Origin: Alloascoidea hylecoeti
Taxonomy: Eukaryota
NCBI GenBank assembly: GCA_001600815.1
Contig: BCKZ01000009.1
Location: 708,194 to 742,453 of the forward strand
DNA length: 34,260 bases
Reading direction: 5' to 3'
Within the stretch, counting starts at the first letter, position 1. Every line of letters begins with the position of its first letter. Of the stretch, positions 1,580-33,985 are shown in pieces. The notes under the pieces were generated by a model. It saw only the letters and a list, made by a program, of their open reading frames with translations. It ran no database searches and was not told the origin of the DNA. Position numbers and translations under genes: made by a program.

Positions 1580-2434
1580 TCATAAACCTCTACGTTGATT
1601 TTCATTGTAAAGTTGTCCTTTTCTAAAATTTAATTCAAACAACTTTTTGTTCTCTTCTGTTCCAAAAATTAAACCAATTTCTATCTCTCTAGTTCTGGTA
1701 ATCGTGCATCTTTGATACACATATTCTTCATCTAGATTTAAAGATTCAGGTAAGTTAAAATCATCAGAAAATGAGTCTTTCAATTTATATTCTGGCTGAA
1801 TTGTATGGGTTATTAATGCTTCGTTGCTGGAAATATTAAGCGAATTCGAAGCTGAAACTGGAAATATTGAAATAAAACTTTCATTTTGAAGACCATTCAT
1901 AACACCATGGGAAATTTGTATCTTACAAGTTATGGGAGTCGACCATTTGTGTGGTTGTTTTGGTTCATTATGTATCAATAATTTTGCTCTTATTTCGAAA
2001 TCTACTTTTATATCTTGATAATATCCATTCGTTGATATTTTTTCAAAGTCACCGATGGGATTCGACCATTGTTGTGGTTGTTTTGAATCATTTTGAATCA
2101 AAGCTTTCGCTTNTTGAGTTTCATAATCTGTACATGTTGATTTTTTATCAGAGTCATCGATGTTTTCGTATTGCGGTGGGTTTCTTCGATTCTTTTTATC
2201 AGAGTCATCGATGTTTTCGTATTGCGGTGGGTTGCTTCGATTCTTTTTATCAGAGTCATCGATGTTTTCGTACTGCGGTGGGTTGCTTCGATTCTTTTTA
2301 TAATTCATAATTGATTTGAAAACATTAGTAACTGATTTTTTCCAACTGTTTCTAGTACCGTAATTATGTTCTGGTGAAGTTTGTTCAGCCTTCTTATCTT
2401 CATCAAGTACTGAAATCAAATGCTTTTTGTCCAT
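1580..2434 (-). CDS. Divergent RanBP1/Yrb1-like (PH-fold) domain protein, long form with PPxY repeats (copy A; may be degenerate)
   Basis: 284-aa ORF. The motifs FEIRAKLL..W, THTIQPEYKLK, YVY and IGLIFGTEENKKLFELNFRKGQ parallel recalled Yrb1 ([45 protein letters not shown]). Versus the 31767 copy it has a 14-codon deletion and a frameshifted C-terminus. One N at 2113. Confidence 0.6.
   Translation of the reverse strand: MDKKHLISVLDEDKKAEQTSPEHNYGTRNSWKKSVTNVFKSIMNYKKNRSNPPQYENIDDSDKKNRSNPPQYENIDDSDKKNRRNPPQYENIDDSDKKSTCTDYETQXAKALIQNDSKQPQQWSNPIGDFEKISTNGYYQDIKVDFEIRAKLLIHNEPKQPHKWSTPITCKIQISHGVMNGLQNESFISIFPVSASNSLNISSNEALITHTIQPEYKLKDSFSDDFNLPESLNLDEEYVYQRCTITRTREIEIGLIFGTEENKKLFELNFRKGQLYNENQRRGL
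2142..2301 (-). repeat. 51-bp coding tandem repeat x3 (KKNRSNPPQYENIDDSD)
   Basis: Three near-identical 51-nt units visible in DNA and protein. Confidence 0.95.
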
Positions 2435-3599
2435 GATAAAATTATTATATTAATTACTTGCGATTATGTTAAAGAAAAAGAGCTTGAGTGAAAATAATTT
2501 GTTTTTTTAACGAGAAGGTATAAGAAACCATGTGGAAACTTTAAACAGTGCATAATTATAACAATTGCTGGATGTAAGATAGCAATATTGAACTTCACTG
2601 ATATCCCAATACATCAATTGCATGTTTATGATTATATTTTTAGTAAGTAGTAGTTATTAAATTTGAATGTGCTGCTTTTTACGTGGTCCAAGACTATAGC
2701 TACGTGATACAGTAATTATGTTGTTGTTATGGTATAATTCCTTCTATTATGCTAAATATTATAGGTAGATATAGAGATGTGTTCAGCGTGCACATTCTAC
2801 ATATCCTTATTAATTATTCATTTTAAATTTGGAATTTTAACTTCCAACATTACAATTTCTAAAGTTTCCTATATTTCCATTTTCATTATTAATTTTCATT
2901 TTTCATTATTTCTTTAAATTTAATTAATTAAAATACCTTTAATTGTTTTGGATTTGATGCACTTTCTTCAATTGCTCCCCAAAAGTTTCTAAACTATATC
3001 CCAATCATTTAAATTTTGATTAGTTAATAAATTATCACCATCAAAAAAAAAAAATAATTAAATTAAAAACTTACTGTTTTCTTTCTTTCATTATATATTT
3101 TAATTAATTTCATTTGTCTATCAATAAGCTTTGTTAAATATTCTTTAGAAGTTAATTCATCACCTCCATTATCAAACTCTTCAATTTTTGGTTCTAACAT
3201 TTTTTTAAATTGTTCGTTGTTGGGAATGATAAGATTTCACATTGTGCTATAATATTAATAACATTTGAATATACTTACTTGTTTTCAATTCACCAAAAGA
3301 TAAAGAAATCTCTTTTTCTTTTTCTTTTAATTTCTCAATTCTATCATTTAATTCTTCAACATGCCAATCTTACCTTTGTAACAACATAAAACGTTTGTTT
3401 CTCACAATTCTTTTTAAATGTAGTTTCCCCGATGATTAAAATGATTCTAAAACTTTAACAGATGTTGCTTTATTTATTGTATTATCAAGATGTAATATTA
3501 TATCTAAAACTGAATATGGAAAATTTTGTTTTTTTAAATAATCAAAGATTGTATTTTCAGTTATTTTGAAATATTAGTACTAAATGTTTCTTTGATATA

Positions 3600-3860
3600 C
3601 CGTCAGGTCTGTAGATACCGGATGGTACTATGATTCCAGACACAACATAATTGATATTTTCAACCACCATTTTCTTAACCAAAAACTAATATAAATTAAA
3701 TTTAATACAATTACCAAGATCTATTTAATCTGGTAAATTCTGATAATGATTTTTCAATATACACTTTTTGTGTTTTCTGTTATGGAGTGGGATCTTTTCT
3801 CCGACTTAGAGTATTTAGGTTATTAGAGTCAGTAGCACCAGTCTTTCAACATAATTTTCG
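3600..3860 (+). repeat. Left terminal inverted repeat
   Basis: Reverse complement of about 5180-5415; high identity over about 3623-3807, weaker inward. Confidence 0.85.
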
Positions 3861-4055
3861 GTATCTATTATTAGCTGGAAAATTTTTATTTGGGTATATA
3901 CTAGAATTAGTTTATGGGACGTACTGTCGTAAGGCGCGAGAAATAGGGTGGGATGGTTTGAGGAATTATGACCAGCCATCCCAAAACGCGATAATCGGGA
4001 GCATATAAAAGTACTTTGTCTTTCAATTGTCACCAAGCCTCCATAATAAGTCCAG

Positions 4056-5249
4056 ATGACTCGTACAGGATCTGTGCAGAATTAGAATGAGCTTCAGAAT
4101 ATGTTAGTCAACGCGGCTGTCGATTATAAGCGAAAACACATGAATCAGTCGTTCCGGAAGGTTTCTAAAAAATCTCTGTTCCAAGATCAACTTTAAACGA
4201 ACGTTTCAATAGTTCATCATTGCAAAAGGATTCCTACATTTCTCAAATGGTTCTGACTCCCCTTGAAGAGCAGGAGCTTGCTCGGAGGTTGTTGTTTTTC
4301 TCGTTTGTCGAATGCGTGTGTGCCGATGGTTCCAGAACTGCTCCACTCATTATATTTAAAAAAAAGGAGGATGATGATGTCTCACCTGCTTGGGTAACTG
4401 ATAATGAAGATAGGACACGAAAGAATTGGGTATTTACATGTTCCGGTTCTGGTTATATAAATGGAGATTTGATGTTAAGATGGTTACACGAATTATTTTT
4501 ACCCCATATTGCGTACGAAAAAGGACACATTATTTTATTAGACAGGCATTCTAGTAATATTTCATTTAGACTAGTTATGGAATTTATTAAATATAATAGT
4601 CGACTCTTTATATTGCCTGCGCACACTAGCCAATTGACGCAGGTATTAGACGTCTCTTGTTTTGGTCCTTTTAAAAAGAGGTTGAAAAACATCTATGACG
4701 AAATCCTAGTAGATAAACCCAACAATCATAGAGCACAAAAAGGAGAATTCATTGAAATATATAAAAAGGCCAGATTTGATCCAATAACAGCTAGAAATAT
4801 TCGTTCTGGTTATAAGGCAACTGGAATATACCCATTTGAGCCAGAGAAGATTTTATCGAAACTTGGAGAAGTTTGGGTGGAAGAAAAAACGAAAAAATCC
4901 GAGAGAAATTTCATTTTATATGAAGATTTGGAGGGAGAATTAAAATACGGAACGTTTGTGAACGAAGCTCACGAAACGATGTTGGAAAGGCTGAAAATAT
5001 ATGTATCGGAGGATGAATTTCGTATTTGGAAGAATTGGCTTGGGGTGCAAACAGGCTTTATTATCAAATACATCCACCAATACTCTTGAAGATCCCTTAA
5101 AAGCTATCCGGAGTGGACTTAAGACTTCTAAGAGGGGGAAAGCACTCATAACACATAATTCCTCTGAGATAACGAAGAGAAATGCTTGTCGTGAGATTGG
5201 TGCTGATGAGCTGAATACACCAAGTCGGAGAAAATATCTCACTCCATAA
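4056..5249 (+). pseudogene. DDE_1 (CENP-B/pogo-like) transposase pseudogene
   Basis: HTH-like SFRKVSKK/SVPRSTLNER...LTPLEEQEL, then VECVCADG..PLIIFK, SGYIN..L..WL, ILLLDRHSS, LPAHTSQLTQVLDVSCFGPFKK, GYKATGIYPFEP. It has a stop and frameshifts, and an internal deletion removes the second HTH and the first catalytic Asp (DETG) region. Confidence 0.9.
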
Positions 5250-5415
5250 TAGAAAACGCAAAAAGTGTATATTGAAAAATCATTATCAGAATTTACCAGA
5301 TTAAATAGATTTTAGTAATAGTATTAAATTTAATTTATATTAGTTTTTGGTTAAGAAAATGGTGGTTGAAAATATCAATTATGCTGTGTCCGGAATCCTA
5401 GTACCGTTCTGACGG
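5180..5415 (-). repeat. Right terminal inverted repeat
   Basis: Inverted match to 3600-3860. Confidence 0.85.
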
Positions 5416-7554: not shown

Positions 7555-7880
7555 AAAAGAAGATGAGTCTTTTAATTTATATTGTTAATTTATTTTGGAT
7601 GAATTGTATGGCTTGCTAATGATTTGCTATTGACATGAGTTTTGACCGAAGCTGAATGTGTCACAGGATATATTGAAAGAAAACTTTCTCTTTGAAAAGT
7701 AATTAAGTGGGAACCACAGTAAAATGCTACCTCACAAACTATGGGATTCGACCATTTTTGGGGTTGTTTTGAATTATTTTGAATCAATACTTTTGCTCTC
7801 TTTTTGATTAACATATATGTTTTTCTTTTTGAAAGGAGCTGAGATTACCATGATCAATTACTGAAATCAAAATGAGCTTA
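7555..7880 (-). pseudogene. Divergent RanBP1-like family fragment (copy B)
   Basis: LISVIDH..., RAKVLIQNNSKQPQKWSNPIVC...ESFLSIYPV...SLASHTIHPK*, then YKLKDSSS. A clear paralog of 1580-2434 and 32998-33621, truncated. Confidence 0.8.
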
Positions 7881-8000: not shown

Positions 8001-11000
8001 TTATTTATTTATCTTATTTACTGCAATCCCAATTTTATTGTACAGGAACCGCTTACTTGCCTCGTCTGGAATAGGAATAAACGGACCTTGTTTGCCCCCC
8101 TTAAGCCCTATCGTTATTCCTCCCTTTTCCAGCGTAATACTCCGGATTTGAGGGTAGCTAATAACCCATCGGGTGTTCATTTTCCCAAGAGAAACAAGCA
8201 TCAATCGTCTAAAAGTGACGATAATCGCCTTTTCGTCTCCTGGTAAACAAACATGCGCAATATACTCCTCTTCCTTTGCGAAATTCCCACCATTTACGGT
8301 CTTCAACCAAAATTGGCCCTGCGCTTCCCGGTGGGAATAAGGTTTGATAACCCCATCGTGGCCCACATATCTTGTTAAGCGAACCCGCTCTAATGCTCCT
8401 TGGTCAAAAACAGTCGTTGTGTTGCGAACTCCTTCACTAACACTAGATGCCATATCTAGCAGCCCAATGGCGGTTTTAGTAGGTAACCCAATAACACCTT
8501 TACCTAATCCTTTGAAAAACCCAGCGGCTCCTTCTTCTGCAACCCCCCGCATTGGACTTAATGCTATCCCAGCAATACCACTAGCTAAATTTTCTGCAAA
8601 TGATGTGGCTCCTTGTGTTATCCCATATAACGCATGTACTGGCCGGTTTCGATTTTGAACCAACCTTCTCTTTTCTTGATATCGCTTATCCATAGTTGCA
8701 ACAGATAATCCTTTAGCTGCACTACCCGTTAATCTAGAGATACTATCTGAAATCCCAAAGACAGATTTCTTAACAAAACTCAATCCCCCTTTAGCCAATC
8801 CAATCCCTAGTTCTTGTGGTCTATCATTCATTATAAATCCCTGATATGGTTGATAAAAAATATCCATTACTCCCGAACTAATATTACTAAATAAACCAAC
8901 GGGATTCCCAATAAAATCAGCTGATCCCAATATTTTATGGACCTGATAAATCGATTCTTGTGAATAATGTGTTGTAATTGATTGTAGCAATATAGGTATT
9001 GGAACCTTAACATTTTCCATAAATAATGCGTTTAATCGAACAGGTGCATCATTAATATTACCGATTGCCATTGAAAACATATCAAAAATAAAAATTAATG
9101 GTCCTGAGATACTTGATAATGATAAAAATTGAATATTATCAGAATTAACTGCATGAGTCCTCATAAATGATAAATCTATTTGAATCGGCTGAATATGTAA
9201 TGCTTCAAAATATATATTTAACCCATTTGATGTTTTTAAAGGTTCAGGAATAACTAAATTTTCAAAATTTGGCAACGATTCATCTTCAATTTTTTGTTTT
9301 GTGAAAAATGATCCTGTTTGTGATGCAAATTCAATCAATGCTAATAAAAAATCTTCATCTAAATCAAGCGCCATTTCTTGTAATAAAATCGTAGCATATT
9401 TAACAAATATAACTCCATGACTTTCATCCTTAACAATTGAAATTGACGATGAAATACATGGATGTAAATCCATACTTTTTCCATTTTTGGGTATAATTGT
9501 TGGATATAAAACAATTGGATAAATTCCATTAAATAACTGATTATCAATTTGTAACCATTTTAATTTAATACTATAATTTTGATAAATTTTTGATTCAATA
9601 TATTTTAACTCTGTTCCTTTTAAGGTAATATAACATAATTCTTTTAAATTTGAATTTATAATCGATATGCCAATTGTTTCAAAATTAATTAAAAATCGTG
9701 TCTTAATTGGATCATCGCTGTCATCAATTTCAAATTGTTCATTGTCAATACTCGATGCTAAGCTTTTATTTGACGATCTATACTGTTCAGTCAATTGATA
9801 TAAATTAAATTCTGAATTATATTCTGATATATATAATATTTGAACGGATCCTTCAACAGAAACATTAAATTCTAATATTTTCATTGCTCCTTTTGAATCG
9901 ATACATTTCATTGGTAATAAAGTACCGATTTCCGCAAGTTGAATCCTTCTTTTACTTTTTCCAATTTGTAAAATTAATTCCTTTTTACTAGATGCTGGAT
10001 AATCCCATGAATATGACATTGAACTTTTACCAGGTACCATATATTTAATCGGTTTATAATTATGTTTTAATGCTAATGTTGAATTTGAATTTGAATTTGA
10101 ACTTGAACTTGAATCTAAAATTGAATCGCTTTGATAATAAATTATATCAATATCACTATAATTTCGAATTGAATATGGCCATTGATCTTTTGCATCTTCA
10201 ATATGTATAAACAATGTTGCATCTTCTAATAACACATTAATTAATAATAATGTTGTTATAATTCTTTTAGATTGTGGCAATTGTCTTCGAACACGTAAAT
10301 ATGTTTTGCCAATATCATTAATACTAAATGCCGATGACCATATGATTTTTGATTTATTTGGATTATTATTTTTATTTGTTGGAAATCCTAAAAATATTGT
10401 TTTTTCTTTTGTTGATCTTATAAATTTTAATGACATTAAATCATTTGGATCCAAAATAAATGGTTCATTATCATCATCATTATTTTCAACGATATGAATT
10501 GTTTCACTTAATTTATTCTTCAAAACAAATCTTGGTGATATAGTAACCATTTTAGAAAATCTATAAATTCCAACACCCTCATTAACGGAAACCCCTGCAT
10601 TTATTTCTCTTTGCTTTGTTGATGAGTTCATTGCAACGTTGAAAGAACTACCAATTGCATCTAAACTGATTGGTTTACTCCATTCTGAATCGCCAACTTT
10701 TAGTAATGCTCGTCTATTTGTATCATTAACATCAAACGAAAACATGCTGGGTAATGCTTTTTTAATACTACCATTTGTTTCAGTATCATAAATTGATGAA
10801 ACTTTAGAAACAAGTGTATTATTATTTCTTGTTGCATTTCTTGCTAAATTCTTATTACTTGTTAATTTTAATTCTAAACCAGTTTTATTTAAAATTAAAA
10901 ATGGTGAACTGATATAAATCTTGATACCACGTCCTTCCTTTTCGTTTGTTTCATAGTTTAATCTAATGGTCAATTTTTGACCAGTTTCATTATTTTCAGT

Positions 11001-14000
11001 ATGTAATGTAATTTCTCTTTTATGATTTGTTCCCCTTGGTGCATTAATTACTGCAAAATCAGTCTGATTAAAGCCAGAATTTGGTAATTCAATAGTCAAC
11101 ATTAAAACGTGTGATAATCGAACAACATGAATTTGACTACTTTTACCATTTGATAAAAATGAAGCCCAATCCTTTTTAAGATGTGTGTCATAAATTTTAT
11201 ATCTTAAATCAAATGGTAACGTATTTATAATTTCTAGTGGTGATGTAACAACCAATCTTAAATTTGGATAAATTGTTGATGAATAAGTTTCTGGTGTTAA
11301 ATTATTTGCAACATGGATTTGGAAATTAAATAATGTTTTATCATGCTTCGTTAGTGATGGACAAATTAATGGGATTGAATTAGTATCTTTCTCAATTTCT
11401 TTCCATTGAATTCCATCAACTGACCAATCAAAATTAATATCTCTTTTGGGCACTGGTTTCATAAAGATTTCGGAGGAATACACAAATTCAATCGGAACTG
11501 AGCGACTATCACCTGGGTTTATAATACATTCTCTTCGATAATCATCTTCAAATATATGAACTCCAATCATTATTGGAATTTGTGTTTCATTTGCTATTCT
11601 GAATGATGAACCCAAAGTAATTCTTTTAACATAATCTTCACCAAGATTAACTGTGCACAATAATCGATCATAATATTTATTATTCTTTTTGGGTTTTAAA
11701 GTGTATAATTCTTCGCCTTCTCCGGTAACAGAAATACCATTTATACTTGAATATTGTGTATCTAATAATTCAACGCCAAGAATAGTTCTTTGATTATCCG
11801 TATCTAATTTCTCACGGATTTCCCTCCAATCTTCAAATCTCCATGGTATTTCTTCATCATCTTCCAATTCAGTAAGGTTTAATCTACTATCTTGACCTTT
11901 TAAATCAATCCATATTTTAATTTTGAAACCGGTTTGGTTTCTAATTCGATATGGTGATTCTTCACCTCGTGGTTTCACCAAATCATCTGATGAATAATTC
12001 ATCTGTGAAATAATTTCAGAAAATAATGATAATGAATAAGAAGTTACCGTAACTTCAACATTTTTCCTTGATACTAAATCTAATGATAATGTTTCTTTAA
12101 TTCGTGAAACATGGGCACCAAGTGTCCAAGGTTCAATAAATGGTTCCCATGCAGATTTTGAATAGTTGAAAATATTAACAAACATTATTAAATCAGAATC
12201 AACTTCCAAATCATTCGACCAATTTTTAGCACCAACCGTGAAAGGTCTAACTCTCATATCAATCATTGGTAATTCATGTATTGTTCCAATTATAACTAAT
12301 CTCATACCTTGCATATCAGCACAAAAAGTTTCATCTTTAATTAATATTTCAGCATCTGGAATATCATCATTGTCAAGAATATTATTATTATTAGGATTTG
12401 AATTAACAGTGGATCCAACACTTGAAATACTTTTAGCATACCTAGCAACGCCATCTTTAAATCGACTTGGAAATGTTAATTGCTGCATCTGATTATCATC
12501 ATTTTCGGTATTATCATCATCATCATTATTATACAAATTAGTTACTTTTTGTAAAATCGAAAGTACCAATTGAATATCCCTGAAAGATAATCTTAAAACA
12601 AGTGGTTCAACAGCAATATTTATCTTTGTTAACAATTTAGTAGATGTTGAATTTCTTGTATCAATTAATGAAGAAAATGAAAAATCATCTAATAATCTTA
12701 ATCTTTGATCATTGAATGATTTCATTCTACACAAAAACATTCCAATATTATTTCCAGAAATATTTAAAACTTTTAAACTCGATAATAAAAATTGATCGAA
12801 TTTAAATACAATTGCTTCTGTATTTTCATCTTCTGGATTTGCCAATACTATAACAAATGCATCAACAACATTAATTGAATATGCTATATTTGATCCTTCT
12901 TCTTCATCATCATCACTAGATTCTTTTTGTTTGCTATTAGTAGTAGTAGACTTCTGTATTTGTAATTTGGAGGTGTTTGCTATAGATTCATTTTCTCCTG
13001 CTTTTGGTAAATCAGTCAATACTTTAGCAGTTGAATTCGTTTGTAATTGATCTGAAAATAAAGCAACATCAACAAATGATTTTAAACCAAATAAATAATC
13101 CAACACAAGATATGTACGAGGACTATCAACAGATAGTGAAAAATTCATTTTTCTATTTGGATCTTTACCTGTTGTTTTAATAGATGACATAAATTGATAA
13201 TTATCTTCATGTATTGGATGAACAATATCAGTAAATTTATTATCACCAATTCTCCTAACATCTTCAACAGTAAAAGATTTTGCTTGTATATCTGCTGAAT
13301 AATTCCCATCATCCTTCATTTGTAATTGAATTGATGTTTCATTAAGTGAAAAAAGTGAAAGACCCTTTTCACTTATATCAGATGTATTGGTAGTATCAAC
13401 AAATATTTTTAATGCAATTTTATTGGCAAGAAATTTAAAAGTTATTTTTGTATAATTTGGATCAATATCACCAGGAGTATTAGCTTCAATATTTAATTCA
13501 TTTCTTTTAACTTCTAAATCTTTTGAATCTTGAGATGGTGTTATGAAAACAAATGGGACTGTTTTTATTAAGGAAAGTAAATAACGAGCTTGGATTTCAG
13601 TTAAATTCATTTCAATATCAGGCATTGAACCTTTCATTACCATCATTGGTCTATTAAATTTTTTACCTTCATCAAAAGATGATAGTTTAAAATCCATATC
13701 TAATTTATCAATTATTTCAACATGTTGTTCAATATTATTTGGATAATTAAAAGTAGATGTTAATCTAGTTGAACGGAAGCCAAATTCCATTAAATTAATA
13801 AGACATTTATTGTTTTCAATATCATGATAAACATAATCATTTTTTGCATACATTTCACCAAGATGGGCAGTTATTTTATCATATTTTTCAGTTTCAATAT
13901 TGAATTTTGGAAAAACAACAATTGGAGATTTTATTAAAATATCAAATTTCATTTTTCCACCTTCTTCTTCAACTTGATTTAAAGAAATTCTTCTTGCTGA

Positions 14001-17000
14001 ATCAAAAATTGCTTTTAATTGCAATAAATTACTTAAAAAATTTAGTAATTTTTTATATGGTTCTTCAATAAAATTAAAACGAATTGATTCTGAATGAAAA
14101 TAAACCATTGTAAATAAATCTTCAGTTTTTGTATTTGCAGCATCCATTGTTTCATATCTAATATCTGCTAAATTATCACCTTCAATACTAATTAATTTTC
14201 TTAAAACTGAATCTCTATCAACACCTTCATTTACTTCATCATGAAGTGTTAAAGCACCAAGATTCATTTTAACTTTCATTGTTCCACCTGCTAATAAAAC
14301 ATCAACATCTGCACTACTTAATTTTATAGTAGCGAGTTTTATACCATCATCATTTAAAATTAATGTGATACTATTCATTTCGATCATAACATCAATTCTT
14401 TGAGGTAAATCACTATGTTCATCTGTTTCAATTAATTTTGGAGGTGCATCATTACTAACGAATGTTGTTAAACAAAAATCAATAATTGTTAAAATACTTG
14501 TTCTCGTTACAACTACCAATATATCAGAAATTTTCAAATCAACCGATTGATCAAATAATTCAATAATACCTTCTTCAGTTAGAGCCATTCTTTGTTTTCT
14601 TGTATAATGGACAGTAAATAATTTAAATTGATCATCATTTTCTTTATTAGTTATAAATGATTTATTAAGAGATGTGGCTAACATTCTAAATTCAGGTGGC
14701 ATTGTAGGATCAATAAAATCTTCAATTTCTAATGATTTTAAAGTCATATCAACTTCCATATCAGGACCAATTTTAGCAAATTCAAGTTCTAAATTAGAAG
14801 CTCTGAGATCAACTAATCTTGATTGTTTGAAAGTTTTTTTATCTGTACATTTATATAGAGATAGTTGTACTTCATCAACAGAAAAATTAAAAGCAAGTAA
14901 TTTTTGAATGATGGTTGATTTTGAAGTATTATTGGTATTTGTAGTAATTGCTGATTGTTGATCATCATCATGTTCATTTATACTTGTTTCATCACTTGAA
15001 TATGAATCATCAATTAAATCAGCAAGATTTAATTCATCACTGTTGGCATCTTTATTTCTTATTTCATTATCAAAATCATCAAAATCAGGAATAACAGAAG
15101 TTAATAATTGCATCATAACTTTATATTTAGCATCCGACATTGAAGCACAAAACCTAGGAACATTTGCTGATACTTTAAATCTTGGCAATTCCTTTGATGA
15201 AGGAACAATTGACAATTCAGCAAGAAAACTTATATTTAATCTATCAAGAACATAAGAAGATCTTTCATTTGATTGAATATCATGAGAATGTAATTCAGAA
15301 ACAGTACTTTTAATAGTTGGACCAATTAATATTTGAGTATCTTCTAAAGTAATATTAAATTGATCATACATTAAAGAATTTAATTTATTCCAATCTTCTT
15401 TATTAATTGAATTTTTTGAATTGATATCTTCTTTTAATTTTGGGTCAGCTAATTTACTAACAACATTAATATGACCGGAATCAATTATACCACAAGGAGA
15501 ATTCCAAGTTGTTGGATCAATTGGTAATATAAATAATGGAGCTTGTAAATCTAAATTTAAATCAATTGTTTGATGTTCCTGTAATGCATATTCAAGACCA
15601 ATTCTTGTTTGATTTTTAAAATCATCAATAGTTGCTTCTGTAACATTCATTATTGCATCAATTGTTTCTTGATGAGATTTTAATGGCTTAAAGAATTTAT
15701 AAACTTCTTTTATATAACTAATATGATAAAAAACTGTTATACTTTTCATTTTTGAAAATAATGAATAATTTGCTATCGAATTCATTGGATTTTTTTCAAA
15801 TGATGCATAAAAAAAGGGTTCTTCATTGATACTTGATGATGATGATTTCGTTGGATCATGCATATCAGAATGAATTGATTTAACACTAACAACATGTGGA
15901 TAAATTGAATTTTCAGTACCATCTTCAACTCTGAATTCTTGTAAACTACATTCTGATAGAAAAGAATCAGGACGTTGTTTAAAAAAAGCTTTAAAATCAT
16001 CAAATACCAATTCAGTTATAAAAGCATTATTACTATTTGTTGGTGATAATGATGATGATTTTTTTAATTTAAAACTACCACGGGATAAAGATAAAATCAT
16101 ATTAAATATAACACGATCTTTCGGTAAATCAACAGATTCAATTAATGCTTGTTCATCAAAATCAATTGCTTCAAATAATTCTTTTCTTTGTTCTTCAGAT
16201 AATGTTTCATTTTCAGTTGCAATTGATTTTTCATTATTTTCTCCAGTTTCTGAATCAGTGATTGAATTTGAATCATCTTTTGTTCCCCATATCCAACTTG
16301 ACCAACTTGAATTTTGTTGAATTTGTTGTACTCTTGGTTGTAATAATTTTTCTTTTTTTAATTCAGCTCTTGTTAATGATCTATAAAATCTAATATCTTC
16401 AAAATCTAAAATCTTTTCGAGATTTTCAAATGATTTCTTTTCATCAATTGTCATTGATTTTTCATCAACATATTTTTTTTTATAAATTTTAATATATTCT
16501 TTTCTATTATCTCTTCTTTTTTTAAAAAATTCCCACGTCCATTTATATCTTGTCTCATGAACTTTATTTAATATAACTTTTATTGTATATAACATCCAAG
16601 CTTTTGGATCTTCATTGGGTTTAACACTTGGTCTAAATTTTCTAAATTTTTTGATTTTTTGATATAAATGAAATTGATTTGCCATCCATAAAGCATCTCT
16701 ATATTGATTTGAATCTAATTCAATGTCGATTACACCAAATGATAAATTTGTACTTGTTTTGGGGTTTTCCGGTGTTGAGCCTGCTTTATTTAGAGTAATT
16801 TTACCAATACCAGAAACAGGATTCACAATATATTGAATTTCGTTATCATTTGAATTATCATTTGATATTGAACTTGAACTTGAATTTGAAATATATTCTC
16901 TGAAAACTTGCAACATTTCTTCAGGAGTTTCAATATTTTGTTTTAAAGATTTAGTATCAGTATTCCAATAAATACTAAATTCAGTTAATGTTATTAATTT

Positions 17001-17743
17001 AAAAGTTAATGCTTTACTAATTTGTATAAAACTAGTTTCCCATGAATCATTTGTACTAACAGCAGATAATTCTTTTAATATTATACCAATTGCAAAAGGA
17101 TTTGGAGTTAAATTTGAGAATTCTTCAAATCTAATATGAATATTTTTAATTTGAATTTGTAAATTATCAATAATTTTTGTAATTAATGTTGTTTGGAAAT
17201 TTTCATTTGCTAAATCATTCGAATGGTTTTCAGAATATGTAGCAGATTCTTGATTTTTTGTAATTATATCTAAAGTTGCTAAATTTTCCTGTTTTACAGC
17301 TTGTGCCCTTCTTTCTTCTTCTTCAGAATTATACCTTTCATCGTTAGTTGGTTCGATCAATAAATAAACGTCTTCGACAATCACTTTCACGGGCTCATTT
17401 CGTAGATTTGACCATGGTATTTGTAAAGTGAGTTGACCCAAATAACCCGAATGAACATTAATTGGCAATTCCAATTTATCAAGGGCTTCTTTTTTCAAAG
17501 ATAGATTTCGTAATTTAACATCACCGGACCATATTCCGATGTTGAGTTGTTTTGGATCGAAGTTTTGTACCTAATAATAATATAGTATTAGGGGCAAATG
17601 CTAGAATGTGGTTGTTAAGGGTTGAGATGTCGACATACATAAGAGCCCTAATAAGATGTTAGTGAATGGAAATTGCCATAATAAACAAACATTTAACATA
17701 CTAAAACCCGATTGAGTAGAGACGCTACGATACTTTCCAGCAT
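8001..17743 (-). CDS. VPS13: Vacuolar protein sorting 13 bridge-like lipid transfer protein, about 3206 aa; exons 17743-17702, 17647-17639, 17570-8001
   Basis: Spliced N-terminus [37 protein letters not shown], chorein motifs LQIPWSNL and KIIDNLQIQIKNIHIRFE, and C-terminal GSADFIGNPVGLF and GFFKGLGKG. Both introns are GTATGT..AG. Confidence 0.97.
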
Positions 17744-20206: not shown

Positions 20207-22394
20207 TTATTTAGATGGATCTTCTTCAAATCTTAAATCCCATCCAATTTTTGGTCCTAAAGTTGGTAAAACTTCAGCTACACTTTGAACATCCTTATCA
20301 CCTCTACCACTTAAACAAATAACAATATTTTGTTCAGGCTTTAAAGTTTTTGCTAATTGAATTGCTCCATAAACAGCATGAGATGATTCTAAAGCTGGAA
20401 TAATACCTTCTAATTGTGATAATAATTTAAAACCTTGTAAAGCTTGAGCATCAGTTGCTGCTATAAAAGTAGCACGACCATTGGCTTTCCATGATGCTAA
20501 TTCAGGTCCAACACCTGGGTAATCTAATCCAGCTGAAACAGAATGAGTGTCTTGAATTTGTCCATCTTGGTTTTGTAAAACATAGGTTTTAACACCATGT
20601 AAAACTCCGGCATGACCAGCAGTTAATGTAGCACTATGTCTTGGAGTATCGATACCATCACCACCTGCTTCAACACCAAATAATTGAACAGATTTATCAT
20701 TTTCAAAAGGTGAAAACATACCAGATGAATTACTACCACCACCAACACATGCAACAACTGCATCTGGTAATTTCCCATCATTTAATGCTTTAAATTGTTC
20801 CTTGGTTTCATTACCAATTACACTTTGGAAAGTTCTTACCAATGTTGGATATGGATGTGGGCCAATAGCACTTCCAACAACATAATGAGTTGTTGAAAGA
20901 TTGGGTACCCAAAATCTAAAAGCTTCACTTGTTGCATCACGTAAAGTTTGTGTACCATTCTTAACAGCAACAACATTTGCTCCTAATAATTTCATTCTGA
21001 AAACATTTAAAGCTTGTCTTCTAACATCTTCAGCACCCATAAATACGGTACATTCTAATCCAAATTTAGCAGCAGCAGTCGCAGTTGCAACACCATGTTG
21101 TCCAGCACCAGTTTCAGCAATAACTTTTTTTTTACCTAATCTTTTAGCTAATAAAACTTGTGCTAGAGCATTATTGATTTTATGTGATCCTGTATGATTT
21201 AAATCTTCACGTTTTAACCAGATTTTTGCACCTCCTGCATATTCAGTTAATCTTGGAGCTTCGTGTAATGAGGAAGGACGACCAATATAAGAATATAATG
21301 ATTTAAATTCAGCCCAAAATGAAGGATCATTGACAGCATCTTCAAACCCACGTTCTAATTCCAAAAGACATGAGTGTAAAGCTTCAGGTACATATTGTCC
21401 ACCAAATTGTCCAAATCTTGGATTGAATTGATGTTTTTCTCCATCATTTTCAGATTCAATGTTGATTTGATTTTTCTCTTCTGATGAATTTAAAATAGAA
21501 GATGCAGCTTCGGGATGAGCAGGTGTTTGTTCTTTGGCTTCATCACCAGTGCCATGAACAATTGAAGAAACATAATCTTTAACTGCTTCCCCTCTCTTAC
21601 CAGCAGGTGAATTTTCTAAAACTGAGATGATTTTAGATCCGATAACAACACCATCGGCAGCAGAGCCAACAGTCAAGAAATGTTGTCTTGTACTAACCCC
21701 AAATCCAACAGCCAATGGGATATCACCACTAAAAGTTCTAATATGATCACATAATTCAGTAACAGTTGCGGAAACTTCTTGTGAAGCACCGGTTGTACCC
21801 ATTCGTGAAACCACATATATAAAAGAGTCAGCAATACTTGATAAAACTTTTAATCTAGAATCACTTGTAGAAGGAGCTACCAATGGAATATAACTAAGAC
21901 CTGATTTCGTTGCATAAGTTCTAAATTGAATAGCTTCTTCTGGTGGTAAATCAACGACAATAAACCCATTTGCTCCGGCATCTTTTGAATCTTGGATCAT
22001 TTTTTGTTCTCCATATTGTAGAATTGGATTATAATAACCCATTAAAATAATTGGAATAGTAACACCTGCTGATCTTGCCTTTTTAACTAGTTCAAGAGAT
22101 AACGAAACAGATATACCATTTTCTAAAGCTACAACATTTGCTTTTTGGATTGTTGGACCATCAGCAATTGGATCAGAAAACGGAACACCAAGCTCAATTA
22201 CTTCAGCACCACCTTGCTGTAATCCAAGCAAAGTAGGAACGGTATCTTCGATGGTTGGGTACCCAGCAGTAACAAAAGTTACAAGAGCTCTTCGGCCTGA
22301 AAAATATTAGATTCCGCTTCAGGCAATCGGTTTATAAAGCAAACATACCCTCTTTTTTACACTTTGAAAACACTTCTTTTAACTGAGCAGACAT
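20207..22394 (-). CDS. TRP5: Tryptophan synthase (fused alpha/beta), exons 22394-22349 and 22296-20207, 711 aa
   Basis: [41 protein letters not shown] (PLP lysine), [23 protein letters not shown]. 52-nt GTATGT..CTAAT..CAG intron. Confidence 0.98.
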
Positions 22395-22547: not shown

Positions 22548-25043
22548 ATGTTGGCAATGTTTAGTTTATTTGCCTTATTTTTCTCATTTGCCTTGTTTGT
22601 GGTTAGTTCGGCTGATAAATTAGATAATATTCTATACAATGAGTATTCAAGAGCGTCCAATGCTTCCTTATTATGGGGTCCTTATAGGCCAAACGTCTAT
22701 CTTGGAATACGACCAAGAATCCCGTTATCTTTAATATCAGGTTTTGTATGGTTCAATGCTGATGATCTATCAGGGATTTCAAATGCAAGACATTTTTGTA
22801 ATCAACATGATGATTTAAACTCATTTGGGTGGACGAATTATGATCCAAGAATTGGTGGAACTGAATTTATCAGTGATAATAATGCTAAACTTAATCTAAC
22901 TTTTAATTTTATAAAAACTCCAAATGGGAAAAATTGGGGTGTTAAGGTTAAAGGTGTTCCATTTAATAATGATAAAAATACTATATCTAGTATTGTTTTT
23001 TATACTGGTTTACAAGGTGCTGGAGAAATATCATTATCGAATAAGCCAGAAGATAAAGGTTATACTAGACCAATTCATATAAAAGGATCAACACCTGAAT
23101 TAGGTCAATTTCATTTAACAGTTACAAATGGTCCAAAAACTAATGTTCATCCTATATCTCGTCATCCAATTGAAAAGCTTCTAACAAGTACGAAAACTCA
23201 TCATATGAGTTTAAAAATTCCTGATGAATTTTTATGGAAAGCCAAAGATGTTTTTTATACTTTAGTACAACAATCAGCAGAAAAATTAGGAGAATCATAT
23301 CAAAAAGAAAATGTTGAAATGGCTCCAGCTCATAATATTTTCACTTTAAGAAATTTAGAAGGTTATACAGGTAATTTACATTTTGTTCAAAAAACATTCA
23401 AAGGGGAATTTGAATTTGATGTGTTGTACAATACAATTGGTGATGAAAGTGAAGATGAAAAATTAGATGATAAGAAATTATCTAAACTTTCTGAAATTGC
23501 TTTAGAAAAATTCAAACAGAAATTTGATTTAAAATTTGATTTAAAGTATCCTTATAATAATGATGAACATAAACGTTTCGGTCAAGAATTATTATCCAAT
23601 CTTATGGGAGGTGTAGGATACTTTTACGGAGATTCAATCGTTGATAGAACACATGAAAATGATTATGATGAATATGAAGATGAAGAAGATGAAGAATACA
23701 ATAGTATTACTAATAATGAAAAGAAAAAACCAACAGTTGAACCTCCTCATGAGTTATATTCTTCTGTACCAAGTAGACCTTTTTTTCCAAGAGGTTTTTA
23801 TTGGGATGAAGGGTTTCATTTAATTCCAATACTTGAATATGATCTTGATCAAACATTAGAAATTTTAAGAAGTTGGTTTTCTTTAATTGATAATAATGGT
23901 TGGATTGCAAGAGAACAAATTTTAGGTCCTGAAGCTAGGAATTTTGTACCTGAAGAATTTCAAACACAATATCCTCATATTGCAAATCCTCCTACTTTAA
24001 TGATTGTTTTTACTTCATTATTAGAAAAGGCTAAAGAACAAGAATTAAAATTAAAAGAACAACAACAAATAAATGAAGATTTCATTAATTTAAATGATGA
24101 TATTTTAAATCAATTTAAACATTTTAAATATGAAGATTTAGGTGAAGCTCATATGAAATATCCAAGTTTATTAGTTAATTACGCACATGAGATATATCCT
24201 AAACTTCAAAAGCATTACGAATGGTTTAGACAAAGTCAAGCAGGTGAAATAACAGAATGGGATCGTGAAGCTTATTCAAATAAAGAAGGGTATAGATGGA
24301 GAGGAAGAACTGAAACTCATTGTCTTGCAAGTGGTCTTGATGATTATCCTCGTGCCCCTGATCCAAATGAAGCAGAACTTCATGTTGATTTATTATCTTG
24401 GATTGGTGTTATGACAAGATCAATGAGGCAGATTGCACAATTATTAGAAAAAGAAGAAGATGAAAATAATTATAAAGATATTGAATACTCCATTCAAAGA
24501 AATCTAGATGATTTACATTGGAGTGAAAAGGATAAAACATATTGTGATTTAACATTAAATGATGAAGATGAAACTGAATTTGAATGTCATAAAGGTTATA
24601 TTTCAATTATGCCTTTTTTACTTGAATTATTAGCAATTGATTCACCACATATAAAGCCATTAATCGAAACAATTAGCAACCCAGAAGAATTATTTAGTCC
24701 ATATGGTATTCGAAGTTTATCTAAATCAGATGAATATTTCAGAACAGCCGAAAATTATTGGAGATCACCAATATGGATAAACATGAATTATTTAGCACTT
24801 AAATCATTAAAATATTATGGAGAAGGATCTTCTGATGAAGAAGTTCAAAAATTGGCAGCCGAGACGTATAAACAATTAAGAAATAATATAGTTGATAATG
24901 TTTATAATCAATGGATTAATACAGGATTTGCTTACGAACAATATGATGAATCAACTGGGAAGGGACAAGGTGTTCGGCATTTCTTAGGATGGACTTCCTT
25001 AGTTATTATGATTATGGGTATGGAACCAAACCTAACCATTTAA
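22548..25043 (+). CDS. CWH41: Mannosyl-oligosaccharide glucosidase I (GH63)
   Basis: N-terminal hydrophobic anchor, SLLWGPYRP, VPSRPFFPRGFYWDEGFH, GWIAREQILG, ANPP, CLASGLDDYPR, YWRSPIWINMNYL, YEQYD..TGKG...HFLGWT. Confidence 0.97.
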   Translation: MLAMFSLFALFFSFALFVVSSADKLDNILYNEYSRASNASLLWGPYRPNVYLGIRPRIPLSLISGFVWFNADDLSGISNARHFCNQHDDLNSFGWTNYDPRIGGTEFISDNNAKLNLTFNFIKTPNGKNWGVKVKGVPFNNDKNTISSIVFYTGLQGAGEISLSNKPEDKGYTRPIHIKGSTPELGQFHLTVTNGPKTNVHPISRHPIEKLLTSTKTHHMSLKIPDEFLWKAKDVFYTLVQQSAEKLGESYQKENVEMAPAHNIFTLRNLEGYTGNLHFVQKTFKGEFEFDVLYNTIGDESEDEKLDDKKLSKLSEIALEKFKQKFDLKFDLKYPYNNDEHKRFGQELLSNLMGGVGYFYGDSIVDRTHENDYDEYEDEEDEEYNSITNNEKKKPTVEPPHELYSSVPSRPFFPRGFYWDEGFHLIPILEYDLDQTLEILRSWFSLIDNNGWIAREQILGPEARNFVPEEFQTQYPHIANPPTLMIVFTSLLEKAKEQELKLKEQQQINEDFINLNDDILNQFKHFKYEDLGEAHMKYPSLLVNYAHEIYPKLQKHYEWFRQSQAGEITEWDREAYSNKEGYRWRGRTETHCLASGLDDYPRAPDPNEAELHVDLLSWIGVMTRSMRQIAQLLEKEEDENNYKDIEYSIQRNLDDLHWSEKDKTYCDLTLNDEDETEFECHKGYISIMPFLLELLAIDSPHIKPLIETISNPEELFSPYGIRSLSKSDEYFRTAENYWRSPIWINMNYLALKSLKYYGEGSSDEEVQKLAAETYKQLRNNIVDNVYNQWINTGFAYEQYDESTGKGQGVRHFLGWTSLVIMIMGMEPNLTI

Positions 25044-27052: not shown

Positions 27053-27347
27053 GGCTCTGTTTCAATCCGCGCTTCCCCGTGTACAAAAGAACGAACTGTA
27101 AAAAGTTCGTTAGAAAACACTAGAAAACGGGTGGGAAATTCGGTGGTACTTCTCCAAAAAATTATTAGTTCTTGAGAACAGGATTATTCTGTGGAAACGG
27201 ACTGCGATGCCATTAGAAATCTAAAACTTTTCAAAAGTTTATGGGAAGGGTATTGCTGGGGATTGGGTCCTACAGGGACTTGTTTAGTGCAATGCGCGGA
27301 CTAAGGTGGAAATCTTAGCACTCGATACCGATCAATGGGACAGAGCC
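27053..27347 (+). ncRNA. RPR1: Nuclear RNase P RNA
   Basis: Conserved regions in order: GGTGGGAAATTCGGTGG, CTTGAGA, TGTGGAAAC, AGTGCAAT, ACTCGATACCGAT. P1 pairs GGCTCTGTTTC with GGGACAGAGCC; P2 pairs TCCGCGC with GCGCGGA. T-tracts follow. Confidence 0.93.
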
Positions 27348-28321: not shown

Positions 28322-29689
28322 TTATAGGAAAAGAACAGATAAACCTGCAATAACACTAAAACCTGCAAATAAAACACTATTCCCATTTGAATTCATAACA
28401 GCACCACCAGTAGAAGTAGCAGTTGCTGAAGCACCACTTGTACCAGAAGCAGAAGAACCACTTCCAGATCCTTGAGTTTTAACAACAACAATTAAAGTTG
28501 TATCTTCACCACTTCCGGATCCTTTAATAACTGAAGTCTTTGTGGCTTCTTTTGTTGTTGCAGCATTACTTGTTGTTTCTCTAACAATTACTAAAGTTGT
28601 TAAATCTTCACCAGTTCCTAAAACTGAAGTTTTTGTTGTTTTACCGACTGTTGCTTCATCAGAAGATTTATGTTTTGTTGTTGTTTCAGTAACTTTTGAA
28701 CCATTTGTTGTTTTAACGACAACAACGGTTGTTTCTTCTTCATCAGAACTAGATTTTGATTTTGTTGCAGCAGTTGTAATTGTAGAAGAAATAACAGAAC
28801 CATTTGTTGTTTTAACGACAACAACGGTTGTTTCTTCTTCATCAGAACTTGATTTTGTGGCAGTAGCTGCAGAAGTAATTGTAGAAGAAATAACAGAACC
28901 ATTTGTTGTTTTAACGACAACAACGGTTGTTTCTTCTTCATCAGAACTAGTTTTTGTGGCAGCGGCAGAGGTAATGGTTGAAGAAATAACAGAACCGTCA
29001 GAGGTTGTAACGACAACAACGGTGGTAGCTTCATCAGAGGCAGAATTTGTGCTTGTAGCAGCGGCAGAAATGGTACTAGTGGAGGAAGAAACTGAACCGT
29101 CTGATTGTGTAACGACAACAACGGTAGTAGAATCACCAGAAGAAGAAGTTTCAGCGTTTGAAGCGGATTCGGTATTTGTAACACCTCTATCACCATTGGT
29201 AGTTGCTTCTTCGGAAACTTGGGTGGTAGCGGCGGTAGTAACCTGGGTGGTAGCTGCTTCGGTGGTAGTAGCTTCAGTGGTGGTCTGGGTAGTTGCAACG
29301 GTGGTAGCTTCAGTAGTGGCGGTAGTAGCCTGAGTAGTAGCTTCGGTGGTAGCCTGGGTGGTAGCCTGGGTGGTAGCAACAGAAGTAGTTTCAACGGCAG
29401 TAGCAGTGTTTGTTGCAACAGAAGTAGCCGCACCTTCGGCAGTTGTAGGATTGACATAAATGGTGGAAGTGGCAGCAGCACCACCACCATAAATAAGGGT
29501 AGGGACGATAGTTGTAGAAGTATAGGTGGTAATGGCGCCATTGTTGGAAGAGATCAAGAGATTGATGTAAGTGAGGTAATCAGTCGAGATGGCCAAACCA
29601 ATGTAGGAGGTGTAAGTGACGACCACAGCGTTAACGGAAGAAGCCAAAAGGGCGGCGACCGCGAGGGAAGAAGAACGAGAGAGTTTCAT
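28322..29689 (-). CDS. Secreted GPI-anchored Ser/Thr-rich cell-wall protein or adhesin-like protein
   Basis: Signal peptide MKLSRSSSLAVAALLASSVNA, Thr/Ser-rich body with repeats, C-terminal hydrophobic GPI signal, TATATAAA at 29754-29761. Confidence 0.9.
   Translation of the reverse strand: MKLSRSSSLAVAALLASSVNAVVVTYTSYIGLAISTDYLTYINLLISSNNGAITTYTSTTIVPTLIYGGGAAATSTIYVNPTTAEGAATSVATNTATAVETTSVATTQATTQATTEATTQATTATTEATTVATTQTTTEATTTEAATTQVTTAATTQVSEEATTNGDRGVTNTESASNAETSSSGDSTTVVVVTQSDGSVSSSTSTISAAATSTNSASDEATTVVVVTTSDGSVISSTITSAAATKTSSDEEETTVVVVKTTNGSVISSTITSAATATKSSSDEEETTVVVVKTTNGSVISSTITTAATKSKSSSDEEETTVVVVKTTNGSKVTETTTKHKSSDEATVGKTTKTSVLGTGEDLTTLVIVRETTSNAATTKEATKTSVIKGSGSGEDTTLIVVVKTQGSGSGSSASGTSGASATATSTGGAVMNSNGNSVLFAGFSVIAGLSVLFL
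28690..29140 (-). repeat. About 99-bp coding tandem repeat (SSDEEETTVVVVKTTNGSVISSTITSAATATKS), about 5 units
   Basis: Identical anchors at 28702, 28801 and 28900, plus two more diverged units upstream. Confidence 0.9.
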
Positions 29690-30530
29690 TGTCTAAAGAA
29701 GTGGAGAGGAACTGAATTGATGAAGAGAAGAACGAAGGAAGGGAGTTGGGGGATTTATATAGTTTTATATAGAAATAGAACAGGAACGCAATTGGTAGCA
29801 AGTTGGTAGCTATGCAGATCGCATAGTCGTATTTGGTAGTAAATATTATTGAGAGCCGTTTGACATTTCGAGCTGCCAGCCACGAGCCCTGTGGGTGATG
29901 CGTGCGACAGCCAGGACAACAGCAGTCAGCCAGCCTTTTCTCTGGCAGGGCTGGGTGCTTCTATTATTAAAATATGGACATTGGATACAACATATGACCA
30001 CATGCATCTCCAACTATTTAAATACAAATTTACATTGCATCATTGCTGATTTGACAAAGATCACTGTTTCTCGTGGGCCCATTCCAGCACGTTATCCCTC
30101 CTGGGCCGCGGCGTCGCATCTCACCTTCAGCGGAGGGTGTGTCGGTGCGATGCCAATTGTCAGGATATGGTAGAATATATAGATGGATGGTCGATTCGAG
30201 CTCGAATCCTGATATGCGTGGAATATGCAAGTAATTTAATATCCAATGTCTATGCATATTGCATATTTCACATCCATAGCCAACAACCTCTTTTAAATTT
30301 ATCCAATTACAACATTTATTGCTTTTCGTAACGGTGGAAGCCTGTCGTCACCTCTAGTTCGTAGAGTGTTCTGCTCTGTTTGTCTGTCACTAATGTCAAG
30401 TATATACCAACAAATACACAACTATTTTGTATGCCTGTGTGTCGTATGCTTAAAACTATTAAAGATCTAGATATAGAACGTGTGCGCATTCTATCCTATA
30501 ATCAGCCATCTCCTAATCATTAATTAATAA

Positions 30531-31360
30531 CTACTTTGGAATTTTAACCTCCAAAATTACAATGTCCAAAGTTTGCTATATTTTCGAATTCATTATTAAT
30601 TAAAATCTTCCATTTTTACCTTAATTTAATTAAAATATGCTTACCTTTAATTGTTTTCCAATTAAATTACATGAATTATCACCGTCAAACACAAATAATT
30701 AAATTAAAAACTTACTTTTCCCTTTCTTTCATTATATATTTTATTTAATTTTATTTGCTTAACTTTTATCAATAATCTTTGTTATTTCTTTCTTCTTTTG
30801 AAATTAATTCATCTCCTCGTTATTATTATTATTAAATGTTTTAAGTTTTGCGTTTAGAATTTTATTTTTTCTTGTTCGTTGTTGGTGATGATGATAAGAG
30901 TTCACATTGTTGTATAATATTTAATTAATATAATATAATATTAACAATATAATAAATTAAAATGATAACATTTGGATATACTTACTTGTTTTGAGTTCAC
31001 CAAAAGATAAAGAAATTTCTTTTTCTCTTTCTTTTAATTTCTCAATTTTATCATTTAATTCTTCAACAGAAGGACAGCCATCTAAATTATCTGGCTAAAA
31101 ACCTTAAATTTTATTAATAATATGATACCTGTGTAGCAATATAAAACGTTTGTTTACCATAAGTTTTCCTGCTGAGTGTAATGATTCTAAAACTTTAACA
31201 AATGTTGCTTTATTTATTGTATTATGAAGATTTATAATTATGTCGGAAACTGAATATGAACGATTTTGTTTTTTTAAATAATCAAAGATTGTATTTTTGA
31301 AATATTAGTATGCATATTCATTTCTAAGTATTTATGTATAACTTCAGAAATATCTAATTT
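30531..31360 (-). pseudogene. HOP2: HOP2 pseudogene (copy 2), no transposon insertion
   Basis: IFDYLKKQNRSYSVSDIIINLHNTINKATFVKVLESLHSAGK/TYGKQTFYIATQ resembles Hop2 (DYL..QNRPYS..DI..NLH...TFGK). It carries a frameshifting deletion and has lost most of the penultimate exon. Confidence 0.85.
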
Positions 31361-31394: not shown

Positions 31395-31666
31395 ACAAAA
31401 TAAAGATTTTTGACATCTCAGAAAATATTGAAATGAGACTTTTTAGTGATTTTACAGTAATTGAGCAAAAAAAATGCATCTCCTCATTTAGCAAGAATAT
31501 CACAGAGAAATCCTTTATCAGTTGATGATTTGATCAGTTATAAATACTATGCTCATGAATCCGGTCAAAAGGTTAATGCTTATGTTCTGGATACTGGTTT
31601 CAATTTTGATAATCCGGAATTTGAAGGAAGAGGTCATTTTGGTGCTGATTTCACTGGTGATGGACC
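31395..31666 (+). pseudogene. Subtilisin-like (S8, proteinase K/Prb1-type) protease fragment, cut by an assembly gap
   Basis: NASPHLARISQR...YKY....GQKVNAYVLDTG...PEFEGR..FGADF (catalytic Asp motif). A +1 frameshift lies in the A8 run near 31467, and no N-terminus is seen. Confidence 0.8.
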
Positions 31667-31766
31667 NNNNNNNNNNNNNNNNNNNNNNNNNNNNNNNNNN
31701 NNNNNNNNNNNNNNNNNNNNNNNNNNNNNNNNNNNNNNNNNNNNNNNNNNNNNNNNNNNNNNNNNN
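31667..31766. other. Assembly gap (100 N)
   Basis: Run of N. Confidence 1.
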
Positions 31767-33621: not shown

Positions 33622-33985
33622 GATAAAATTATTATAGTATTGATTTCTGGGGATAATGGTAAAGAAAAAGAGCTCAAGTGAAAAAAATAATCATAATTAA
33701 TATATTCATATGCATAATATCAAAAAGGTATAGGAAACGGTGTTGAAACTTTAACGTCAAATAACACTGCATAATTATAACAATTCCATGTAAGATAGCA
33801 ATCTTGAACTTCTCACTGATATCCCAATACATCAATTGCATGTTTATAATTATATTTTTAGTAAGTACTAGTAGTTATTGCTTTATAGGTGGTCGTAGAC
33901 TATAGCTGTGTGATACAGTAATTATGTTGTTGTGCTAAATATTATAGGTATCGATCTTATATAATCAGACATATATTTTTAATTA

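Follow-up and report, generated by a model that had tools for sequence, protein, structure and literature searches.

A Yrb1-like gene family and its relatives

The window analysed here is a stretch of 34,260 nt from the yeast Alloascoidea hylecoeti (contig BCKZ01000009.1 of assembly GCA_001600815.1, forward-strand positions 708,194 to 742,453), and it contains four copies, termed A to D (Table 1), of a gene that resembles the Ran-binding domain (RanBD) of yeast Yrb1, i.e. RanBP1. Copy A at 1580-2434 is the open reading frame (ORF) that had been singled out in an original prediction made from the DNA letters, and its sequence is best explained as that of a member of a lineage-restricted, multi-copy and fast-evolving family of what would be small cytosolic proteins. 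This family is probably derived from YRB1 and either neofunctionalised or, in part, decaying in a birth-and-death process.

From its N terminus, the predicted product of copy A consists of a tail beginning with MDKKHLIS, as do the window-type proteins in general, followed by tandem units of 17 amino acids (aa), a partial extra first strand, and the RanBD-like core. The extra strand (.AKALIQNDSKQPQQWSNPI) lies upstream of the domain and is present in copy C as well. Each unit of the repeat holds PPQY, which gives copy A three PPxY motifs, and copy D has only EPNY at a comparable place. The strings ELVFTMRA.IL, ALHTIQPEYKLK and KFGFVFETEENKKLFELNFKKGQLYN, which the original prediction had placed in copy A, in fact belong to copy D; at the corresponding places copy A reads DFEIRAKLL, ALITHTIQPEYKLK and EIGLIFGTEENKKLFELNFRKGQLYN.

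Copy B is identical to the database protein P0007. Copies A and C were found as a repeat with 97% identity over 431 nt, and the protein identity of these two to copy D is 58-61%. In copy C, the domain and the C-terminal tail are complete and the 5' part is hidden by a 100-N assembly gap (31667-31766). This gap is one of three N features in the window, the others being single Ns at 2113 in copy A and at 33472 in copy D, where the codon AAN encodes Lys or Asn and never a stop. The N at 2113 and the last N of the gap, at 31766, occupy the same homologous position in the 97%-identical copies, and this coincidence suggests that the repeat disturbed the assembly or scaffolding and that no biological feature is involved. 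As copies A, C and D have no CTG codon, a reassignment of CUG is irrelevant for their translation.

Copies A and D also have their upstream flanks in common. Over 593 aligned nt, this non-coding flank has 89% identity, rising to 95-98% in its distal part, in contrast to 79% in the coding region and only 68% at the nucleotide level in the middle of the domain. This pattern may stem from a fast diversification of the central loops or from gene conversion that homogenised the flanks, two explanations that the analysis cannot separate.

The count of four copies in the original prediction is right for the window, while the family is larger in the genome and has a sister subfamily. A word-seeded search of 5.8 billion proteins found the relatives P0001-P0004 at 45-61% identity. 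The designation as an orphan family is well founded, as none of the three window copies tested had a meaningful Pfam match and an exhaustive HMMER search of 1.84 billion representatives gave only eight proteins at E<=1e-3. Two of these eight, P0008 (E 6e-22) and P0010 (E 3e-7), belong to the sister subfamily P0008-P0013, which is completed by P0011, P0012 and P0013. With P0008 as the query, only P0008, P0011 and P0012 matched at E<=10, and a joint profile of both subfamilies, run against 2000 candidate proteins, gave five proteins at E<=1 (the sister subfamily including P0013) and returned neither a canonical Yrb1 orthologue nor the window-type proteins. A search of the ESM Atlas with copy C was uninformative, its best score of 0.78 being to a bacterial cluster without a name.

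Several members are truncated or split, namely copy B/P0007, P0003, P0005 and P0009, and P0010 together with P0013 is apparently one split gene. The summed contig depth in one DNA run was about 476 over the conserved 3' part and about 24 on the unique flank, which is a rough sign of many copies. The contigs of three DNA runs fragment over the family and none spans the gene, and one contig joint translates, by hand, as GYYENENEVFALR and matches P0004, so that at least the P0004 paralog resides in the same organism as the window. No paper describing such a family was found in the literature, which is no proof that none exists.

Relationship to Yrb1 and the remodelled domain

The relationship to Yrb1 becomes apparent through the sister subfamily. 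The profiles of the window-type (A4) and sister (A5) proteins align in hhalign with 99.5% probability (E 2.3e-23, 138 columns, 37% identity), and among the 177,635 distinct sequences of the PDB set, the sister profile matches Yrb1 over the whole domain at E 1.2e-12 (profile 41-180, chain 18-139), followed by RanBP2 at E 2e-6 and human RanBP1 at E 0.14. Single sister proteins suffice for this match, as P0008 alone reaches Yrb1 over the whole Ran-binding domain at E 4e-6 (query 44-182, chain 19-139) and P0010 alone matches it at E 7e-6. With the joint profile A3 of both subfamilies, the E value for Yrb1 is 5.1e-8, and seven of eight matches are Yrb1. The window-type profile (A1, eight sequences) likewise has eight matches in the PDB set, and the seven Yrb1 chains among them rank best. 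The colinear matches to Yrb1 that the original prediction had named were recovered by HMMER in the same two stretches, one from HTIQPEYKLK to an 11-letter string and the other the C-terminal helix FG.EEN..F...F..Q..N, at E 0.076 with the window-type profile or 5.1e-8 when the sister subfamily is included.

These comparisons support a real, if very distant, derivation of the family from the Ran-binding domain of Yrb1/RanBP1. Since yeast Yrb1 scores far above the animal RanBDs and the family carries Yrb1-type strings (I.PEY, FGS.EN.DKF), an origin in a fungal YRB1 gene is indicated. YRB2 and NUP2 are absent from the PDB match lists of the joint and sister profiles, and the comparison with PDB chains would point to YRB1 rather than to either of these as the source. 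With respect to Pfam Ran_BP1 (PF00638), the profile check gave a divided result, as the window copies do not match and the sister protein P0012 does, with 27.1 bits at a cut-off of 23.2; P0011 and P0008 score 19.5 and 14.9 bits. Intermediate paralogs can thus recover an annotation that is missed by direct Pfam scanning.

The structural predictions agree with a relationship to RanBDs. An AlphaFold2 model of the copy A core from 15 sequences has a mean predicted local distance difference test score (pLDDT) of 72.6 and a predicted template modelling score (pTM) of 0.71, and the 17-aa deletion that distinguishes copy A is closed in it as a tight hairpin. In Foldseek, the listed rows down to rank 33 consist of RanBDs throughout, the best of them with E 1.9e-5, at TMt 0.6-0.72. 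In VIA-align, the core aligns with Yrb1 at Z 14.5 over 119 residues with a root-mean-square deviation (rmsd) of 2.6, and the sequence identity of 23% is the highest in the table, while the divergent RanBDs of RanBP3, Nup50, Nup2 and Yrb2 are among the matches at Z 11.3-12.4. For copy D, the rows that Foldseek lists above rank 38 are likewise RanBDs without exception (the best at E 1.1e-4), and in a VIA-align scan of 48,161 chains the top three are human RanBP1 (Z 11.3), the RanBP2 RanBD (10.8) and Yrb1 (10.7), followed by Homer EVH1 (10.3) and then PH domains. The models support a PH-like predicted fold of the RanBD/EVH1 type. The resemblance to RanBP1/Yrb1 that had been proposed is thus borne out by the transitive profile chain and the PH-like predicted fold, and similarity to RanBD/PH folds, without which the proposal would have failed, is seen in the profile chain as well as in the RanBDs at the top of the match lists.

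Like Yrb1, with which they are homologous across the whole domain, the family proteins have the same predicted order of strands and the C-terminal helix, and they differ from it in the motifs that contact Ran. The conserved motifs of Ran-binding domains are given in a published description as KXRAKLXRF, WKERGTGXXXXLXHK and RXXMRRXKTLKXCANH (PMC7229160). In the first of them, all copies that cover the region still have RAK[LIV]L, with IQ, IH or IK in place of RF. Only the Trp survives of the second, and every member of both subfamilies has W-S-x-P-x-x-C instead. Of the third, which has lost its MRR stretch, only the final His is left (as NH in the sister proteins). What has been kept from Yrb1 is therefore RAKxL, the Trp, the His, I.PEY and the helix FG.(E)EN..F...F..Q, the last two being of the Yrb1 type. 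The replacement of WKERG and MRRD and the presence of loop insertions, both noted in the original prediction, are evident in the alignments to Yrb1: about 16 aa (..S.DYFKLP.S.NLD..) are inserted after PEY specifically in the family, and a longer loop precedes the last strand, except in copy A, where it has been deleted again. WSxPxxC, the DYFKLP insertion and IxPEY are common to both subfamilies, at about 30-37% identity. Between RAK and the conserved His, Yrb1 has 17 Lys or Arg among 50 residues, and copy A has 5 among 63 (counted by hand in the joint-profile alignment). A reading of the YFKLP.SLNL insertion as similar to a nuclear export signal was dropped, as nothing beyond the pattern of residues spoke for it.

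The N-terminal tails are new in comparison to Yrb1. Besides the PPxY motifs (three for copy A, one for each sister protein), all four sister N-termini considered have an MGxxxS start and DPPPY, and two of them have a Cys at position 4 or 5. MGxxxS with Cys is a pattern of N-myristoylation or palmitoylation, and DPPPY is a docking site for WW domains as in Rsp5/Nedd4. The tails could therefore dock a ubiquitin ligase of the Rsp5/Nedd4 type, and the MGxxxS start of the sister proteins may be a putative fatty-acylation-type signal.

The family probably arose by duplication of the Ran-binding domain of the yeast's own YRB1. With WKERGTG and MRR gone and the N-terminal half of the domain stripped of most of its basic residues, the proteins would no longer clamp Ran-GTP in the canonical way, and in consequence they would not be co-activators of RanGAP. 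The RanBD fold may have been adapted as a module that binds a different partner, with selection holding some copies open while their central loops diverge fast and others decay, which would amount to a birth-and-death turnover.

It is rather unlikely that the proteins still bind Ran-GTP in a weak or non-canonical manner, like Yrb2, RanBP3, Nup2 or Nup50, and that they modulate the Ran cycle or Crm1 export or compete in them as dominant-interfering proteins. This was the second option of the original prediction, and it overlaps with the derivation from YRB1 preferred here. Yrb2/RanBP3, Nup2 and Nup50 are transport factors, conserved and single-copy, in which the RanBD is fused to FG or other regions, and they still bind Ran. 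Their RanBD-fold domains likewise deviate from the consensus of RanBP1, and in this they resemble the family; the structural matches to them, as well as the retained fold, RAKxL strand, Trp, His and C-terminal helix, would fit such a function. In contrast, none of them appears in the sequence matches of the joint or sister profiles, no member of either subfamily retains WKERGTG or MRR, and the hand count indicates that the basic residues of the Ran-facing half are largely gone. In a preprint, a positively charged patch of the RanBD that sequesters the DEDDDL tail of Ran is described as necessary for tight binding, and NUP50 as still binding Ran (bioRxiv 10.1101/2021.10.26.465790).

Function, decay and rival explanations

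Several observations weigh against a YRB1-derived and neofunctionalised family and have to be set against the above, beginning with those that concern the ancestry. Pfam Ran_BP1 is matched by none of the three window copies tested with hmmscan, even at E<=10, and P0001 does not match it either. As the direct signal of the window-type profile in HMMER against the PDB is by itself not significant (E 0.076), the membership among RanBDs rests on transitivity via the sister subfamily. The model of copy D is poor (mean pLDDT 53.2, from a 13-sequence alignment). For the copy A model, the joint use of AlphaFold and Foldseek placed RanBDs at the top of the listed rows, as for copy D, yet Homer EVH1 domains follow in Foldseek from rank 35 on with higher TM-scores (0.76-0.81), and in VIA-align Homer3 EVH1 ties with Yrb1 (Z 14.6 versus 14.5; rmsd 2.8, 115 residues aligned). 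The predicted fold therefore does not discriminate between RanBD and EVH1, and the assignment as RanBD comes from the sequence evidence.

This geometry, which is nearly identical to that of the EVH1/WH1 domains of Homer and Ena/VASP (PF00568), raises the question of whether the proteins could be binders of proline-rich peptides of the EVH1/WH1 type that are tied to Yrb1 only by the common PH-like fold. The proline-rich tails with PPxY would suit such an activity, and there are weak matches of sister proteins to Pfam WH1 (P0011 20.3, P0012 19.1 and P0010 14.1 bits), all of them below the cut-off of 22.4. However, the sequence points to Yrb1 over the full domain (E 1.2e-12) and to no EVH1 chain, the family having no significant sequence relation to this group; P0012 is above the Ran_BP1 cut-off and below that of WH1; and in the structural alignments of the copy A core the identity to Yrb1 (23%) exceeds that to Homer (16%). 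From the window copies, no match to Pfam WH1 (PF00568) was obtained. An EVH1-type origin is thus highly improbable.

Further points concern the function and the state of the genes. The loss of Ran binding, the docking of Rsp5 and the acylation are all readings of motifs and would have to be regarded as such. Copy A has, compared to C, a 51-nt deletion by which 17 aa between the last two strands are gone, and a 5-nt indel leads to an early stop in place of the conserved aromatic C-terminal tail (..MYEDWIFLS in C). Before RAK it has ATA where the paralogs have ATG, and the single N at 2113 lies in the codon NAA, which can be Lys, Glu, Gln or a stop, so that the ORF is possibly not intact. By these alterations, and with the tandem repeat inserted in it, copy A is the most altered and most derived member, and it may be a decaying and possibly dying one. 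The ratios of nonsynonymous to synonymous change (dN/dS, Nei-Gojobori) are 0.43 for A-C (dS 0.05, with 14 changes only), 0.88 for A-D and 0.75 for C-D (dS about 0.3 in both cases) and above 1 against fragment B, and these pairwise values are close to neutral drift.

Such values would be expected if the copies were non-functional relics, that is, YRB1-derived pseudogenes that reside in segmental duplications together with HOP2 remnants, drift neutrally and contain leftover frames. Also the many truncated or split members, the deletion, frameshift and possible stop in copy A, and the truncated HOP2 copy that adjoins it (3436-3573) are consistent with relics. Among the sequencing runs searched, no RNA run turned up, a result that speaks neither for nor against relics. 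What speaks against relics is that copy C is open over at least 199 codons and copy D over 207, despite a dS of about 0.3. Stops make up 7.1% of the codons over all frames of the AT-rich window, and in simulations a frame of 167 codons remained stop-free after 107 neutral substitutions in 0.25% of the cases (a chance of 0.0025), a figure that is biased because the open copies were those that had been noticed. Moreover, both subfamilies have kept the motifs that distinguish them from Yrb1, in spite of their low identity to each other, and the models fold as a complete domain. It is therefore unlikely that the family consists of relics only, and a YRB1-derived family in which some copies are under selection and others decay remains the preferred explanation.

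YRB1 is normally a single, conserved and essential gene that evolves slowly, and in this respect the family is the opposite of RanBP1/Yrb1: it is private to its lineage, multi-copy and fast-evolving, and very few database proteins belong to it. If it is expressed, it would be a clear-cut natural case in which a core transport domain has been put to new use as a binding module, and it may also be a yeast case of conflict-driven evolution. It is distinctly unlikely, and more speculative than the above, that the family is the product of an arms race, in which a duplicated essential gene of the Ran cycle was turned into a variable binding module with PPxY docking motifs and, in the sister branch, a lipid anchor, and acts either against or in favour of selfish elements that rely on nuclear transport, or is part of a poison/antidote or drive-like system with ties to the HOP2 duplication. 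If this were true, the fastest-changing loops, which replace the Ran-contact motifs (68% identity between A and D versus 89% in the flank), would be the specificity surface. A Ran-cycle gene in genetic conflict is known from Segregation Distorter of Drosophila, where Sd is a truncated duplicate of RanGAP. Like Sd, the family would be a fast-evolving duplicate of a core Ran-cycle gene that has lost part of the normal function; in contrast to Sd, nothing in the present sequences points to drive. The upstream flanks of A and D do not contain the Ndt80-type (middle-sporulation) promoter element CRCAAAW, which has 27 matches in the window versus 30.4 expected.

Genomic context of the copies

The window is AT-rich, with about 29% G+C, and its annotated features, among them ordinary genes of budding yeasts, are compiled in Table 1. 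Copies A and D each adjoin a copy of a HOP2 block, and both blocks lie inside a segmental duplication that carries the Yrb1-derived genes.

Table 1. Positions of the family copies and of neighbouring features in the window (names marked with "translation" were read from the translated sequence)
Feature	Position	Strand	Description
Copy A	1580-2434	minus	ATG-to-stop ORF, 284 codons
Copy A RanBD-like (PH-fold) core	1583-2047	minus	155 aa; predicted 7 strands and long C-terminal helix
Copy A tandem repeat	2142-2301	minus	period 51 nt, 3.1 copies, 98% matches; encodes KKNRSNPPQYENIDDSD
Upstream flank of copy A	2435-3100	minus	common to upstream flank of D, 33622-34260
Copy B	7590-7844	minus	84-codon fragment, N-terminal half of domain only
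Copy C	31769-32368	plus	inverted near-twin of A; at least 199 codons open
Copy D	32998-33621	minus	207 aa, most canonical window copy
HOP2 (TBPIP winged-helix) block, left copy, truncated	3063-3573	minus	Pfam TBPIP E 4.6e-8 at 3436-3573
HOP2 (TBPIP winged-helix) block, right copy	30957-31304	minus	Pfam TBPIP E 4.3e-13 at 31104-31304
VPS13-like ORF	8001-17570	minus	about 3,000 codons; translation
Tryptophan-synthase-like ORF	20207-22042	minus	translation
Glucosidase-I-like ORF	22548-25043	plus	translation
Nuclear RNase P RNA	27056-27344	plus	Rfam RF00009, 59.8 bits, full-length match

Next to the left HOP2 block there is a DNA transposon-like unit at 3624-5405, in which an ORF on the plus strand (4247-5089) matches Pfam DDE_1 at E 5.8e-20 and which is bounded by inverted repeats of 203 nt (3624-3826 and 5203-5405) with 92% complementarity. 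Upstream of the assembly gap that hides the 5' part of copy C, an open frame on the plus strand (31461-31660) runs into the N stretch and reads ..VLDTGFNFDNPEFEGRGHFGADFTGDG, which we take to resemble the Asp-box region of subtilisin-type proteases; it has no Pfam match.

The minus-strand ORF at 28322-29689 (455 codons) is rich in Ser and Thr, has an N-terminal hydrophobic stretch and contains five tandem repeats of 96-99 nt; it accounts for the G+C-rich bin at 29001-30000 (0.476). No Pfam match was found for this ORF, and from its composition it looks like a cell-wall or mucin-type protein. Finally, a plus-strand ORF of 130 codons at 6407-6799 matches Pfam FA_hydroxylase at E 4.7e-12 over profile positions 5-110 of 132 and looks like part of a sterol/sphingolipid hydroxylase/desaturase-type gene that may be split by an intron or truncated.

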